Shown here: positions 42,697 through 49,014 of the stretch, piece after piece
How positions within the stretch are numbered: position 1 is the stretch's first letter
Layout: each line of letters starts with the position of its first letter
Source of the DNA: Polyangiales bacterium
Lineage (GTDB): Bacteria; Myxococcota_A; Polyangia; Polyangiales; Polyangiaceae
Assembly (NCBI GenBank): GCA_038230375.1
Contig: JBBRNJ010000005.1
Span: 32,001 to 96,000, forward strand
DNA length: 64,000 nt
Direction: 5' to 3'
The notes under the pieces: generated by a model
The model's database searches: none
Told to the model about the DNA's origin: nothing
Seen by the model: the letters and a program-made list of their open reading frames with translations, nothing else
Made by a program: the position numbers and the translations under genes

Positions 42697-42716
42697 TCAT
42701 TTCAGGGCGCAGGCCG

Positions 42717-42732
42717 TGGCACTTGGGTTGCT
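42717..42732 (+). promoter_or_regulatory. Sigma54 (-24/-12) promoter upstream of the ECF sigma gene
   Basis: TGGCAC-TTGGG-TTGCT matches the TGGCAC-N5-TTGCW consensus. Confidence 0.75.
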
Positions 42733-42758: not shown

Positions 42759-43340
42759 ATGCCCAAGAACGCTTCTGCCACTCCTTCTCCTTCCGACCGC
42801 CCCGCAAAGGCACCCCGCCCCTGCATGGCACTCCGCGACGAGCTCACGCTCGTGTTGCCGGAGCTGCGTGCGAGAGCGATGAAGCTGACGCGCGATTCGG
42901 TCGCGAGCGACGACCTGGTGCAGGACACAGTCGTGCGTGCGCTGTGCTTCGAGAAGCAGTTCATCCAGGGTACGAACGTGCGCGCGTGGCTGGGCACGGT
43001 GCTCTTCAGCGTGTTCGTATCGCGCTACCGCCGCAAGAAGCGCGAGCAGCGCGCCGCGGTCGCGCTCGCGGCGGATCCGTGTGCGTGGACGACGCCGCAA
43101 GGCTTCACCGCACCGGACTGCGGCTCGCTGGCGCCCGCAATGAAGGTGAAAGTCGAGACGCTGCCGCCGGCGTTCCGTGACGTGGTGTGCCTGGTGGATC
43201 TCCAGGAGCGGTCGTACCGTGATGCGGCGACGGAGCTCGGCGTGCCCGTGGGCACCGTGATGAGCCGCCTGCACCGCGGCCGCCGCCTGCTCGCGGAGAG
43301 CCTGGCGCAGCCGGGTACCGAACAGAAACACGCCGCGTGA
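42759..43340 (+). CDS. ECF RNA polymerase sigma factor
   Basis: DDLVQDT, GTNVRAWL, LPPAFRDVV...SYRDAATELGVPVGTVMSRLHRGR. Confidence 0.92.
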   Translation: MPKNASATPSPSDRPAKAPRPCMALRDELTLVLPELRARAMKLTRDSVASDDLVQDTVVRALCFEKQFIQGTNVRAWLGTVLFSVFVSRYRRKKREQRAAVALAADPCAWTTPQGFTAPDCGSLAPAMKVKVETLPPAFRDVVCLVDLQERSYRDAATELGVPVGTVMSRLHRGRRLLAESLAQPGTEQKHAA

Positions 43341-43361: not shown

Positions 43362-44996
43362 TCACGCGTAGATCGGCCGCGCGGGAAGCTCGAGGACGCC
43401 GTGGCTCGGGGCACTTACTTCACGGTGCCGCTCCTTCGTCTGGCCTTTGATCTTGAGCCCCACGCCCTGGACTTCGGCGTTGAGCGAGAGCCCACCGGAT
43501 GTCTCCACGGAGGAGTAGGCCTCGGCCTTTGCCTGCGCACCTGGACCGAACACACCCATCGCGCCCGGAAGGTCGGCCGCTGCGACCAAGGCCATGGCTC
43601 GAACCAGGTCTGCGTTGCTCCCGTTCCAGCCCTTCACTTCGAGGGTGCGGGTACTCACGAATTGCTCCGCGCCAGCGCCGCCACCGTTTGACCTCTGGGT
43701 GGCGACGCCAAGACCAAGCTGCACACCGGTCGCGCGTTCGCTCTTGAGCGTCACGGTTCGAGCGCCGCTCTTCAACTGTCCCTGAAGATTCATCAGTGAT
43801 GCGCCCGGGTCCGACAGGAGCCGTGCGGAGTCGACGTGCTCAGGCAAGGCGTAGACCATTGAGAACTTCACGCTCACGTCCTCCTGATGGTTCACGGCCA
43901 GCCCGTTCATCGGTAAGCCGGCAGGCTGCTCTCGGTTGCCTGATGCCCGGGCCAGCCCAGCTCCGCCGGTCCCCGAAACTCGTCCAGATGTCTCGAGCGC
44001 GATCTCCACGGTCGTCGCGCGCCCGCCTTCGAAGTGGATCGTCGACGAGACCTTTTCCGCTGGCAAGCCCTGAAGTGCCGCGCCCATGGCGGCCCTCGCA
44101 CCCTCGGCGCCTGACGCCTTGTTGATCTCCGCGGAGAGAACGCCCGAGACTGTGACGTCGCTGATGTGCGAGCGCAGGAACGCCGTGTCCGCCGCGTTCA
44201 TCACGCCGTGGTTGCGGAGCTGCTGCGCGCCTTCGAGCATCGGGTTGTATGCAGCCATGCCGTAACGCAGGACGCATTCGGTGAGCTTCTTCGCATCCGC
44301 GGCGGTGCTCACCTGGAATGTGATCTTGGCGCCGGCCGCGGCCTGGGCTTTGGCCTCCATGAATCCGCCCTTCTTGATTGCGGTCGCTCCCAGCTCGCCG
44401 CTTGCCTCGACCTTGAACGCTCCGTCCTCGCCGCGCGTCACCTTCACGCTGACTTGCTCTTCAGTTCCGCCTCTACCCACGCCGAGCTCGATGGAGCCGG
44501 TGATCTCGTAGGTGTCGTTCTTCTGGAGCGCGGCGACCTTGCTGGGTGGGGACTGCGCGAGCGTCATGAGATCGACCTGTCGTGATGCCTGTGCCATGTC
44601 CTGGACGACGCTCACGATGGGTGCCTGAGCCTTCACGCGAGCAAGGTCGAAGCCCAGCTCCACGCCATGGTGCGGCGCGTTGCATTCGCTCACGCGGCCG
44701 TCCAGGTCGAGCTGCTCCAGCAGACGCTCACCGGGTAGCTGACTGGTACGCCGGCCCAGAGCGCGGAGCGTGGCGCCGTCCGGCTCACCCGTGGTTGGAA
44801 GGCCTTCGCTACGCTGAAAAGAGGTGAGGCCCTCCTTCATGGTCCTTGGCGTATATCGATCGGTGCCAGCGAGCTCGTTGAGGAGCGCGAGGGCCTTCGG
44901 GGTGACGTCGTTCGAGCGGATGGTTCGCTCGCGCTCCTCCGCCTCCCGCGTCGTGGTGTCCGTATCCGAGCTGCGCGAACGATCGACGATGGTCAT
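43362..44996 (-). CDS. Peptidoglycan-binding-domain protein with large unknown C-terminal region (candidate secreted effector)
   Basis: TMKEGLTSFQRSEGLPTTGEPDGATLRAL matches PG_binding_1; no Sec signal; S/T-rich polar N-terminus. Confidence 0.7.
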   Translation of the reverse strand: MTIVDRSRSSDTDTTTREAEERERTIRSNDVTPKALALLNELAGTDRYTPRTMKEGLTSFQRSEGLPTTGEPDGATLRALGRRTSQLPGERLLEQLDLDGRVSECNAPHHGVELGFDLARVKAQAPIVSVVQDMAQASRQVDLMTLAQSPPSKVAALQKNDTYEITGSIELGVGRGGTEEQVSVKVTRGEDGAFKVEASGELGATAIKKGGFMEAKAQAAAGAKITFQVSTAADAKKLTECVLRYGMAAYNPMLEGAQQLRNHGVMNAADTAFLRSHISDVTVSGVLSAEINKASGAEGARAAMGAALQGLPAEKVSSTIHFEGGRATTVEIALETSGRVSGTGGAGLARASGNREQPAGLPMNGLAVNHQEDVSVKFSMVYALPEHVDSARLLSDPGASLMNLQGQLKSGARTVTLKSERATGVQLGLGVATQRSNGGGAGAEQFVSTRTLEVKGWNGSNADLVRAMALVAAADLPGAMGVFGPGAQAKAEAYSSVETSGGLSLNAEVQGVGLKIKGQTKERHREVSAPSHGVLELPARPIYA

Positions 44997-45002
44997 GCGC
45001 TC

Positions 45003-45029
45003 TCATCGGCCGCTCACGCGCGCAGTTGC
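45003..45029 (-). promoter_or_regulatory. Sigma28-like promoter GCAAC-N14-GCCGATGA
   Basis: The -10-like GCCGATGA ends 6 nt before ATG 44996; the same motif precedes the translocon operon. Confidence 0.6.
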
Positions 45030-45681: not shown

Positions 45682-45708
45682 GCAACCCACGCCCATGGCG
45701 GTCGATGG
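45682..45708 (+). promoter_or_regulatory. Sigma28-like promoter GCAAC-N14-GTCGATGG
   Basis: 40 nt upstream of ATG 45749; same spacing and flanks as the 45003-45029 copy. Confidence 0.55.
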
Positions 45709-45748: not shown

Positions 45749-45979
45749 ATGTCGAACGAGCACGAGGACCGGACTCATCGTCTGAAACAGCTAGACGCAG
45801 CCATCGATGCACAGGACGAAGCGATGAACGCGGTCCGGGCTCACGCCGCAGAGCTCAGCGCGCAAGGAGTCGAGCTGCCTGCTGGTCCGCTCCTCGCGGA
45901 GCTCGATGCCGTCATCGAGAAAGCCATCACGTCCGCACGCACGAACCCCACCACCGTCCACTACGGCCTCCGGGCCTGA
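45749..45979 (+). CDS. Small helical protein, first gene of the translocon-like operon
   Basis: GAGGA RBS, 76 aa, coiled-coil N-half, ends ...HYGLRA. Confidence 0.65.
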   Translation: MSNEHEDRTHRLKQLDAAIDAQDEAMNAVRAHAAELSAQGVELPAGPLLAELDAVIEKAITSARTNPTTVHYGLRA

Positions 45980-45991
45980 AAGAGAACCGTC

Positions 45992-46609
45992 ATGACCATC
46001 AACGCCTCCAGTCCTCTGCTCAACCATCCCCTCGCCAACACTGGCGCCGCCGGAGCCGGCAACAACGTCAACATCGACTGCATCAGCGTCGACAGCATCA
46101 TGGCGTACTGCGCTACCCGCATGAACGACCTCGACCTGATGCTGCGTTCGAAGATGCAGCAACAGACGAACCAGAACAACGTGTCGAAGCAGTGGTCCGA
46201 TCTCCAGGGCCTGATGCAACACTGCGCCGGAGCCGGCATCGTGAAGGGCGGAGATCAGTCGGGCAACAAGGCCGTCTCCGACCAGCTGCTCGCTCAGTAC
46301 AACGCGACCACCGATCCTGCGCTCCGGATCAAGCTCGGCGATGCCTTCACCAAGTTCACGGGCAAGAACATCGCGGATGGCCCGGTGGCCAATCCGGAGC
46401 CTAAAGACCCGGTGTCCGCGTCGGATTTTGCGGGCTTCATCGAGGAGATCAAGACGGATGCCGGCTCCGTCTCGCAGGGCTCGGACCTGGCGATGGTCGA
46501 GATCCAGAGCCTTGTCAGCCAGCGCCAGCAGGCGATGCAGCTCACCTCGCAGATGCTCCAGTCGGAGAGCGAGATCGCCAAGAACATCCTCGGCAACACG
46601 GGGCGCTGA
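45992..46609 (+). CDS. T3SS tip/filament-like protein (EspA/SseB/Bsp22-like)
   Basis: N-terminal helix RMNDLDLMLRSKMQQQ and C-terminal helix DLAMVEIQSLVSQRQQAMQLTSQML...KNILGN typical of the hydrophilic translocator/filament class. Confidence 0.65.
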   Translation: MTINASSPLLNHPLANTGAAGAGNNVNIDCISVDSIMAYCATRMNDLDLMLRSKMQQQTNQNNVSKQWSDLQGLMQHCAGAGIVKGGDQSGNKAVSDQLLAQYNATTDPALRIKLGDAFTKFTGKNIADGPVANPEPKDPVSASDFAGFIEEIKTDAGSVSQGSDLAMVEIQSLVSQRQQAMQLTSQMLQSESEIAKNILGNTGR

Positions 46610-46611
46610 AG

Positions 46612-46989
46612 ATGAACCCCGTCGACCACGCCCTCGCGATCGACGCTGTGTATGCGGCCGGTCGCTGGCTCCTCCAGAACGACCGGCCGCGTGAGGCGGT
46701 CGACATTTTTCGCACCATCATGCTTGCTGCGCCGACGGACGAGCGCGGCTGGCTCGGGCTGGCCGAGGCGCACGACACGCTCGGCGAGCATACGAAGGCG
46801 CTCGAGCTCTTGCGGCTCGCGCCCGACGCAACAGGTCCCCGCGCGCGCATCGCGCTCTGCATGGCGCGCGCGCTCCGCCATGCCGGCGAAGACGCGGCGG
46901 ACACCTACGAGCTCGCGGCGGACCTCGCGTTGGCCGAGAGCGCTGACGATCTCCTCAACCTAGTTCGATTCGAGAAGGCGCAGTCATGA
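46612..46989 (+). CDS. Class II T3SS translocator chaperone (SycD/LcrH/CesD-like TPR protein)
   Basis: AVYAAGRWLLQNDRPREAVDIFRTIMLAAPTDERGWLGLA; 125 aa; sits directly before the translocators. Confidence 0.7.
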   Translation: MNPVDHALAIDAVYAAGRWLLQNDRPREAVDIFRTIMLAAPTDERGWLGLAEAHDTLGEHTKALELLRLAPDATGPRARIALCMARALRHAGEDAADTYELAADLALAESADDLLNLVRFEKAQS

Positions 46990-48305
46990 GCCCCAGTATC
47001 CAGACCCAGGTGCCGCGCACCGCATCGCTGTCCCCGATCACGTCTGGCGCGACGGTCGCGCAGGCGGGCGCACCTCCCTCCGTGCTCCCCACGCCGTCCG
47101 CGTTGAACCTCCCCGACGCGTTGTCGGCGCTCCTTGCACTGCAGTCTGGTGTGTCGAGCGCACAGCAGGCGCAGGGCCAGGCCGATGCGAAGGTGAAGAG
47201 CGCGGCGCGCGACCTCGCAGAGACGACGCGCAAGTCGCACATCAAGCAGGCCATTGACGCCGCAAACGAGGCGAAAAAGCACGCCGATGACGGCGGCACA
47301 TTTGGCTTCATCACCGACCACATCGGTGTCGTTGGCCTCATCGGGCTGTGCACGGGCCAGTTCTATCTCGTCGCAGAAGACATGGCCGCGCACGCCGCGC
47401 AGAAGAACAATCAGTCGACCAGCGCGCTTGGCGTCGGCGCTGCGCTCGTCGGTGGCCCGCTCGGTGCGGGCCTCGAGCTGGGCATCGAGAAGGGACTCCC
47501 CGAGGACTGGACGAAGCCCATGGAGGAGCTGCCGAGCGTGAAGGACGACGACGTACGTGTCGCGAACAAGGTCGCGCTCACCATCGTGATGGCAGAGGCA
47601 ATGGCAGCAGCCACGGTGGCCTCCGGCGGTGCTGCCGCGCCCACGTACATCGCGCTGGCAGGCATCATGGTCTCCACAGCGACCGAGGTCGGCGACGAGA
47701 CCGGTCTGACGAAGAAGGTGTTCAAGAGCGACGCTGCGACCGCCTCGATGGTCGGCCATCTCACTGGAGCAGCGCTTGGCGCGGCCGCCGGCTTTGCGTC
47801 GGCGTCGAGCGCGTGGAGCTACGTATCGGCGAGCGGTCAGGCCCTCGCTGTCACTGCGCAGGCAAGCCAGCAGACGGGTCTGACGAAGGAACTGGTCGGC
47901 GAGGACGCAGACAAGGTGACGCTCGGTCTCACCATCGCTGGAACGGCTGCCGTTGCAGTGGGTAGCGCCGGTGGCATTCTCTCGGGCCCGGGAGACAAGA
48001 AGCCGAAGGTCGATCGGATGGTCGAGCACGGCAAGAGCGCGAAGCAGATCCTCGACGGCGGAGACCAGGTCTACCGCGGCGTCAACGCGATCGAGCGCGC
48101 GCACTTCGAGCACGTCGCTGGCGTCGAGAACATCGAAGCCAAGCGCCAGAAGCAGCTGATGCAGCGCATCGAGATGGCGATTGACGGCATCATCGACGAC
48201 CTCAAGGAGGCGCAGAAATCACAGAAGCGCGCGACCGAGACCATCCAGGGCGCGATCCAGACCGCCCAGCAGACCACCACCATCGCCATCGGAATGAAAG
48301 GTTGA
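46986..48305 (+). CDS. Major hydrophobic translocator-like protein (SctE: YopB/SseC class)
   Basis: Polar N-terminus, coiled coil, Gly/Ala-rich hydrophobic core (AAATVASGGAAAP...LAGIMV), C-terminal coiled coil; no Sec signal. Confidence 0.7.
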   Translation: MSPSIQTQVPRTASLSPITSGATVAQAGAPPSVLPTPSALNLPDALSALLALQSGVSSAQQAQGQADAKVKSAARDLAETTRKSHIKQAIDAANEAKKHADDGGTFGFITDHIGVVGLIGLCTGQFYLVAEDMAAHAAQKNNQSTSALGVGAALVGGPLGAGLELGIEKGLPEDWTKPMEELPSVKDDDVRVANKVALTIVMAEAMAAATVASGGAAAPTYIALAGIMVSTATEVGDETGLTKKVFKSDAATASMVGHLTGAALGAAAGFASASSAWSYVSASGQALAVTAQASQQTGLTKELVGEDADKVTLGLTIAGTAAVAVGSAGGILSGPGDKKPKVDRMVEHGKSAKQILDGGDQVYRGVNAIERAHFEHVAGVENIEAKRQKQLMQRIEMAIDGIIDDLKEAQKSQKRATETIQGAIQTAQQTTTIAIGMKG

Positions 48306-48312
48306 GACCATC

Positions 48313-49014
48313 ATGAACTCGTTCGCCATCCAGGCCCGCGCTGTTTCCACCACCAGCCCCGTCGACAAAGCAACGAGCGTTGGCGGCGCCGCTCCCGCAC
48401 CGCCGGCATCCGCGCTGCCCACGCCGGAGTTCTCGGGCGACGTTGCGACGGCGCTCGCGCAGCTGATGCTGAAGAGCGAATTCGTTCGCAAGAACCTCGC
48501 GCACGAGGAGCGCAAGGTCGCCGAGGCGGGAATGAAGTCTGCGCAGGAAGCGCAGATCAAGGAGCTCACTACAGAGGCGGACAAGAAGCTCGACGCCGCG
48601 ACGGAAGCAGCCGTCGGTACGATCGGCAATGGCGTTCTATGCGCCAGCACTGCGGCCATGGACATCGCAACGACGAACGGGCCGAACGAACCGCGAAAGG
48701 ACGTCTCGCTGAACGGCGCAAAGATGGACCGACGGGCGGTCTCGCTGGCGTCTGACCGCGACTTTGGAAAGGGAGCTGGAGGCGTCTTCGAAGGGTCCAT
48801 GAAGCTCGACGCCGCCGCAAAGGACCACGAGGCGAGCAAGGCAAACATCCGCGCGAAGGCCGATGAAAACCTCGCCAGCGCGTGGAAAAACAGCATCGAC
48901 GACGCGAAGGACGCGCGACAGGACGCGCAGGAACGCATCGGCCGCGTCCACGATTGGCTGAAGTCACTGGAAGAGACGACGGCGCAGACGACGATGAGCG
49001 CCATCAAGGCGTGA
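48313..49014 (+). CDS. Minor translocator-like protein (SctB: YopD/SseD class)
   Basis: 233 aa, helical, one weakly hydrophobic segment, amphipathic C-terminal helix ending TTMSAIKA; follows the SctE-like gene. Confidence 0.6.
   Translation: MNSFAIQARAVSTTSPVDKATSVGGAAPAPPASALPTPEFSGDVATALAQLMLKSEFVRKNLAHEERKVAEAGMKSAQEAQIKELTTEADKKLDAATEAAVGTIGNGVLCASTAAMDIATTNGPNEPRKDVSLNGAKMDRRAVSLASDRDFGKGAGGVFEGSMKLDAAAKDHEASKANIRAKADENLASAWKNSIDDAKDARQDAQERIGRVHDWLKSLEETTAQTTMSAIKA

Follow-up and report, generated by a model that had tools for sequence, protein, structure and literature searches.

The 544-amino-acid protein encoded at this locus has no recognizable signal peptide and a long, strand-rich body, and the question it raises is where such a protein goes and what it does there. 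[quoted passage not shown] The gene is real: the GC content of its reading frame is 0.79 at third codon positions (GC3) versus 0.50 at second positions (GC2), and an orthologue with 85% identity lies at the corresponding locus of a congeneric genome. It is flanked by a cobalamin adenosyltransferase gene and a convergent ECF sigma factor gene (42759-43340). What we take to be a sigma-54-like site (window 42716-42730, plus strand) was considered as the driver of the 544-aa gene and rejected, as it precedes the ECF gene instead. The features of the locus are collected in Table 1. As developed below, the combination of a predicted barrel that lacks a signal peptide with a promoter shared with T3SS needle-tip genes suggests that the protein may be a pore exported into other cells.

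Table 1. Features of the locus, with positions in the window
Feature	Positions	Strand	Remark or basis
544-aa gene	43362..44996	-	Single-gene unit
N terminus, polar, S/T/R-rich, without signal peptide (residues 1-32)	44901..44996	-	Hydropathy
PG_binding_1-like domain (residues ~33-82)	44751..44900	-	Pfam match, residues 50-80 = 44757-44849
Variable linker (residues 83-150)	44547..44750	-	Alignments
Family-defining domain (residues 151-526)	43419..44546	-	12 predicted amphipathic strands, predicted beta-barrel
Promoter-like motif GCAAC-N12-CGGCCGATGA before 544-aa gene	45003..45029	-	Leaderless-like; start codon 33 nt from motif start
Second motif copy, before translocon-like operon	45682..45708	+	Upstream alignment
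76-aa first cassette gene	45749..45979	+	Counterparts in G001, G082, G183
205-aa tip-like protein	45992..46609	+	Role inferred from position; weak PF04888 match, E=0.02
TPR chaperone, SycD/LcrH-like	46612..46989	+	TIGR02552 E=1.6e-8, below cut-off
439-aa SctE-like hydrophobic translocator	46986..48305	+	Congener counterpart PF04888 E=0.0014
233-aa SctB/SseD-like translocator	48313..49014	+	NF052420 E=2e-5, below cut-off

The N terminus is as the preliminary description had it, polar and rich in Ser, Thr, and Arg (4 S, 6 T, and 6 R in the first 30 residues), and no hydrophobic signal stretch was found there. Signal peptides were called by judging hydropathy rather than with a dedicated predictor; on this basis none was present in the 15 family N termini examined, which contain 0 to 3 L/I/F/W in residues 2-26. 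The polar N terminus may represent a type III export signal. The PG_binding_1 motif that had been noticed is also present but weak: it covers profile positions 27-57 of PF01471 and, at 24.3 bits, just exceeds the cut-off of 23. This is the sole Pfam match on the protein; no NCBIfam model matched, and neither a catalytic family nor an XVIPCD was found with Pfam. Homologues from genus g82 cover nearly the full PF01471 profile at 38-41 bits, and 7 of 16 members exceed the cut-off, one of them with the domain at the C terminus; the other nine have long helical N termini, and two members show weak apolipoprotein-like N-terminal matches below the cut-off. The argument that a peptidoglycan-binding module would point to bacterial prey is accordingly weak: fewer than half of the members carry the domain, and it could bind the wall of the producer itself.

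The claim that the gene carries the same promoter motif as the translocon operon held up, and the motif is kept before both genes in the congener. In the form GCAAC-N12-CGGYCGATGR, it was derived from the regions upstream of the barrel gene and the cassette in two genomes. The genome of the window (the own genome, G000) contains 16 exact copies, against 0-1 at six other spacings; since the motif was defined from four sites, two of them in this genome, 14 of the 16 are independent. A reversed-motif control gave 0 copies, and the counts elsewhere were 16 in G001, 10 in G082, 7 in G183, 4 in G211, and 0 in G360. The motif precedes the barrel gene in all five carriers from the Polyangiaceae-level family, despite a different gene locus in genus g82, and the start codon often lies 33-34 nt downstream of the motif start. 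A longer version with an upstream TCGACG element was discarded, as it fits just the two sites it came from. Matches in G113 and G098 consist of repeated 27-mers that are nearly identical and in several cases sit at contig ends; they probably belong to a mobile element rather than to a regulon.

Promoters recognized by sigma-28 (FliA/WhiG) have the -10 sequence GCCGAT and a 15-nt spacer, and the motif, which can be read as GCAA-N15-GYCGATG, agrees with this consensus in its spacing. A second FliA/WhiG-like sigma factor (TIGR02479, E=4e-26, under the cut-off) is encoded in 151 of 201 family genomes, directly before a copy of the motif in G000, G001, G183, G091, and G209; it may be a late regulator devoted to the myxobacterial T3SS. 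At the own-genome locus (G000:C18:21930-23013) the sigma gene is followed by a motif-led SctI-like gene, the product of which matches three SctI models weakly (E 0.018-0.057). The motif is absent upstream of the five flagellin-family genes and of sctV, sctJ, sctN, sctR, and sctU, in keeping with a late class. Of the 16 own-genome sites, seven are followed by first genes that we read as encoding T3SS parts or signal-less polar proteins; judged by the N termini, five sites head lipoprotein-like genes and four head cytoplasmic genes, including one for ComF; an FHA-sigma54 activator is also part of the regulon. The promoter is thus not T3SS specific, and its regulon extends beyond the T3SS. ComF and presumably DprA-like genes are motif led (G000:C32:82294, G000:C138:3831, and L071), a hint that killing and DNA uptake may be controlled together. 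Five further motif-led genes encode proteins with polar N termini, no signal peptide, and no family match (G000:C20:32070-33029, C47:13841-14848, C162:~611, C50:~33268, and C32:36271-37236) and are candidate effectors; those on C20 and C47 look paralogous.

Non-flagellar SctV, SctJ, SctN, SctR, and SctU are encoded singly on five contigs (C17, C22, C93, C97, and C119) among unrelated neighbors and are separate from the flagellar genes on C21. SctR exceeds its cut-off, SctV scores 687.7 against 692, and SctJ, SctN, and SctU are best matched by T3SS models at scores under the cut-off. SctC was not found in this 94% complete genome. The four secretins found there correspond best to PilQ, to GspD (two of them), and to a Tad-type architecture, and none reaches the TIGR02516 cut-off. 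A flagellar cluster (G000:C21:42000-64700 and C3), with FlhA, FliA, and the five flagellin-family genes, is also present in this Myxococcota genome. Across the family of the 544-aa protein, non-flagellar T3SS core genes occur in six of seven carrier genomes. In G360 the sole match to the SctV model scores 561 bits, below the cut-off and below the FlhA of the own genome (592); it may be FlhA, and the T3SS may be lacking there. G262 has an SctV over the cut-off. SctR exceeds its cut-off in all five carriers from the Polyangiaceae-level family and also in 67 of the 201 genomes of that family, with many more near it, so its co-occurrence with the barrel gene carries little weight.

The cassette beside the barrel gene (45749-49014) encodes chaperone-, SseD-, and SseC-like proteins, all called below curated cut-offs. 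It occupies the slot between carD and cobA in G000, G001, G082, and G183, which represent two genera, and it does so in both orientations (L001 6244-9362, L092 5411-8521, and L093 5807-8940 in the relatives). Its proteins are only 28-47% identical even between congeners, whereas the flanks in G000 and G001 are 90% identical DNA, suggesting a hypervariable cassette that is exchanged or invertible. In G082, a gene for a 306-aa protein with an eCIS-core domain (PF13699) directly follows the cassette (L092 4468-5388). The barrel gene adjoins the cassette in genus g1. As to co-occurrence of the two, put forward as a check in the preliminary description, an SctE-like gene was found in two of the five further carriers searched and was not found in G360, G211, and G262.

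Overall, the proposal of a T3SS substrate stands in part. The lack of a signal peptide in 15 of 15 N termini, the shared promoter, and the core genes in most carriers are consistent with it; the presence of the promoter before lipoprotein-like and cytoplasmic genes and the commonness of SctR in the family weaken it. The rival that survives best, though we regard it as unlikely, is that the protein is not a T3SS weapon against bacteria at all but belongs to a sigma-28-like surface or competence regulon and leaves by another route (a type VI or contractile system, vesicles, or lysis), or else is a T3SS effector directed at eukaryotes. The ComF, DprA-like, lipoprotein, and FHA-sigma54 activator genes of the regulon and the possible absence of a T3SS from G360 fit the former, and the action of classical translocons on eukaryotic membranes, as stated in the accessible text of PMC3459982, fits the latter. 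Against export by another route are the position of the barrel gene beside the cassette in genus g1, the polar and unstructured N termini throughout the family (the 544-aa protein has 9 S/T in residues 2-26, and 8 are reached by 3.9% of 2,477 proteins of the genome), and the 16 members scanned, G360 and G262 included, none of which carries a Pfam marker of another secretion system.

What would be exported is defined by residues ~151-526, which characterize an unnamed protein family with at least 16 full-length members, mostly from Myxococcota. A phmmer search of 1.84 billion representatives gave 10 matches. Apart from the query, seven of these align over the body, with 29-53% identity, while two have the peptidoglycan-binding domain alone in common with it. 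Further members came from searching genomes and from profiles: three proteins of genus g82, two from other families, and three more. The gene is present in at least 5 of 201 family genomes; two members lie outside this Polyangiaceae-level family, and 4 of 401 phylum genomes gave a match, the own genome included and one match being dropped. These counts are lower bounds, as only 3-6 candidates were scored per genome. Named members belong to the Myxococcaceae/Myxococcales, one member on an 8.5-kb contig is labelled Longimicrobium, a metagenome scan returned one truncated locus, and among RNA runs no holder was listed. Leave-group-out HMMs recovered eight of nine groups at 120-214 bits and G262 at 26.7, while shuffles keeping the alternating pattern reached at most 18 bits. 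P0006, P0008, G020, and G040 were dropped as members, the common part being the peptidoglycan-binding domain only, as was G358, a Glu/Thr/Ala repeat artefact. Word-based protein searches gave two matches each from the 544-aa query and one alignment and five from another; the best ESM Atlas values (0.78 and 0.89) reflected low recognition and no family, and the best PDB sequence match had E=0.062. The own genome yielded no paralogue, the next best match having E=0.008, and no neighboring immunity gene is conserved at the loci compared. In the literature searched, largely the main text of open-access papers, we found no paper on the barrel family, the promoter motif, or the cassette.

Structure prediction suggests that this domain is a barrel. 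The best AlphaFold2 model of residues 147-544, built from a 19-row alignment, has a pLDDT of 71.6 and a pTM of 0.71, the other four models having pLDDT values of 61-63; a single-sequence fold with a pLDDT of 37.6 was not taken into searches. The model contains twelve strands of 12-23 residues, grouped 4+4+2+2 with helical pairs between the groups (three helical insertions). The two Gly/hydrophobic peptides quoted in the preliminary description begin at residues 165 and 501, and the alternating pattern that it described is real: hydropathy has a period of 2 in 11 of the 12 predicted strands (p<=0.013 in column shuffles of the alignment), strand 10 being the exception (p=0.35). Across the alignment, one strand face consists to ~70% of Val/Ala/Leu/Gly/Ile and the other of Gly/Glu/Ser/Thr/Lys. 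When the model was compared with 48,161 chains by VIA-align, 12-stranded outer-membrane barrels came out on top (Z 13-15, rmsd 3.3-4.6 A over 180-240 residues, 6-12% identity). The Foldseek comparison proposed earlier likewise gave membrane barrels exclusively among the matches listed, at TM-scores of at most 0.28 of the query, so the match to a barrel is partial; a viral fold library gave no usable match (TM <=0.24). By this prediction the protein would function as membrane barrels do. It does not belong to the canonical outer-membrane proteins or to the autotransporters, since it lacks both a signal peptide and the terminal aromatic signal (no C-terminal F/W/Y in any of the 19 rows). The members contain 2.1-5.2% F+W+Y, compared with 11.6% in a TonB-dependent receptor from the window.

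The way in which the strands meet those of known barrels bears on which face would point outward. For all but one of the 13 highest-ranking VIA matches, the alignment is restricted to model strands 2-12 or 1-11; residues 1-164 of the 179 of the designed 12-strand barrel 9fdg meet strands 2-12, and the chain end of 4rl8 falls at strand 11. This shift by one strand implies a barrel of the opposite hand to those made by BAM. The turn geometry of OmpA served to orient the hydrophobic face of the model. Of the 19 rows, 15 have a turn after strand 2 that fits the x-D-G type, and this type sits on the trans side of designed barrels according to the accessible part of a report on their design (10.1101/2020.10.22.346965). 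Taken together, the strand offset, the x-D-G turn rules, and the OmpA geometry place the hydrophobic face outside in the model. The alignment ranges and turns suggest a hydrophobic exterior and a hand reversed relative to BAM-inserted proteins; a barrel of the usual hand, its hydrophobic face turned inward, would be compatible with an identical strand pattern.

Two other readings of the same strands were weighed. Proteins of the MACPF/gasdermin type build pores from long hairpins contributed by several subunits, and if the 544-aa protein did likewise the closed 12-strand monomer would be a modelling artefact. Strands of 20-23 residues in 4+4+2+2 groups with helical pairs between them, the low aromatic content, and Gly/Ala-rich hairpin tips drawn as helices (in the single-sequence model of pLDDT 37.6, and thus very weak) would suit such a protein, but no family of this kind appears among the best 50 VIA matches or the Foldseek matches listed, and the best model closes on itself at a pTM of 0.71, making this quite unlikely. 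Alternatively, reverse closure would give a soluble tube with a hydrophobic lining that extracts lipid from prey membranes or carries it. This geometry agrees just as well with the strand pattern, the polar E/K/S/T face would suit a solvent-exposed sheet too, an aromatic girdle is absent, two members have the apolipoprotein-like N termini noted above, and AlphaFold2 may favor membrane-type barrels. The strand offset nevertheless points to a hydrophobic exterior, and a face made mostly of Ala/Gly/Val cannot fill a 12-strand lumen without cargo; we consider the lipid tube distinctly improbable. Least probable of all is that the T3SS delivers the protein to the periplasm of the producer, where the barrel would enter the outer membrane and the peptidoglycan-binding domain would hold its own wall, as an OmpA-like tether or as an exit channel in place of SctC, for although SctC is not among the four secretins found, the barrel is the size of those of autotransporters and FapF, which pass unfolded chains, and no immunity gene would be needed, the barrel gene is present in 5 of 201 family genomes against 67-162 for SctR and 151 for the sigma factor, variable N termini and fast divergence resemble those of an effector, and the wall-binding domain is missing from 9 of 16 members.

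We tentatively favor the reading that the protein leaves late through the T3SS and, on its own, inserts into a contacted cell as a monomeric barrel pore; its export, its membrane insertion, and its target are all inferred. In this model the 544-aa protein would belong to the late substrates of a non-flagellar T3SS whose genes are scattered and which lacks a secretin. The T3SS-linked sigma-28-like factor would transcribe the barrel gene, the translocon cassette, and the inner-rod gene, and the protein would be exported unfolded by way of its polar N terminus. At the contacted cell, twelve long amphipathic strands rich in Ala/Gly/Val would insert as a monomeric beta-barrel, as the predicted fold suggests, and the polar Glu/Lys/Ser/Thr lumen would act as a hole or an entry port. 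The chain ends and all three helical insertions would remain on the arrival side, where an interchangeable N-terminal module (the peptidoglycan-binding domain or long amphipathic helices) may hold the barrel. For members with the peptidoglycan-binding module, the likeliest site would be a membrane beside a bacterial cell wall. That all of the more novel elements hold together, namely an opposite-hand, single-chain, self-inserting 12-stranded pore, a secretin-less but translocon-bearing T3SS, a prey-wall anchor, and hence a new class of antibacterial pore, is rather doubtful. If true, type III killing of bacteria would gain its first named substrate. The locus offers a concrete candidate substrate and a testable mechanism for T3SS-dependent prey lysis, the promoter motif lists further candidates, and the translocon-like cassette is hypervariable. 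A one-chain barrel inserting without BAM would bear on membrane-protein folding and nanopore design.

Among known barrels, NalP (1uyo), AIDA-I (4mee), BrkA (3qq2), the COG4313 channel (4rl8), NanC (2wjr), and FapF (5o65) likewise have 12 antiparallel amphipathic strands, which are predicted here. The model differs from these 12-stranded outer-membrane barrels in its one-strand offset, strands of up to 23 residues, and three helical insertions, and the protein differs in lacking a signal peptide and a terminal aromatic and in containing 2-5% aromatics. Autotransporters (type Va) have a signal peptide and a C-terminal Autotransporter domain that ends in the last strand; the 544-aa protein has no such signal by hydropathy and no match to that domain in Pfam and NCBIfam, and the strand register of its model is offset. 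An even-stranded, amphipathic, antiparallel barrel, as in BAM-inserted proteins, is also predicted here, but the Sec signal, beta-signal, and aromatic girdles are absent. Alpha-haemolysin, aerolysin, MACPF/CDC proteins, and gasdermins have aromatic-poor amphipathic hairpins with Gly-rich tips and an arrival-side cap, and they form multi-subunit barrels. The predicted hairpins and cap resemble theirs, whereas here one chain would give all 12 strands; beta-pore-forming toxin families are not among the PDB-sequence, Foldseek, or VIA matches listed, which does not exclude a relationship. With type III substrates the protein shares the absence of a Sec signal and a polar low-complexity N terminus, which is suggestive rather than specific.

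The closest described system is the needleless T3SS* of Myxococcus xanthus (mxan_2434-2464), which, in the accessible text, is also non-flagellar, lacks its own secretin, and coexists with a Tad-type system; it forms one cluster without a translocon, whereas here the core is spread over five contigs and accompanied by a tip-, chaperone-, and translocator-like cassette. M. xanthus requires T3SS* to lyse bacterial prey (PMC12075869), and the T3SS* effectors are treated as hypothetical (PMC12075869, PMC12428579), as far as the accessible portions of these papers go, and bradymonabacteria are proposed, in the available text of PMC11509652, to act similarly. Abby and Rocha describe myxobacterial T3SSs without secretin, needle, tip, or translocon, the last two perhaps missed, again in the accessible text (PMC3459982). 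Since prey lysis by T3SS* is in print, an antibacterial role for a myxobacterial T3SS is not new; the preliminary description had called bacterial prey unusual for a translocon-bearing T3SS. HopAJ1 of Pseudomonas syringae carries a peptidoglycan-binding domain. From the accessible parts of the respective papers, the Xanthomonas X-Tfes are secreted proteins aimed at peptidoglycan (PMC7777525), and HopAJ1 and HopP1 are lytic transglycosylases co-regulated with a plant-directed T3SS (PMC3338808), so that possession of a wall-binding module does not decide which cells are targeted. These proteins are described there as enzymes; the 544-aa protein has neither a catalytic family match nor an XVIPCD. 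Secreted pore formers are a known kind of protein, and the unusual part of this locus, as far as the accessible literature goes, is a translocon-like cassette together with a predicted barrel.
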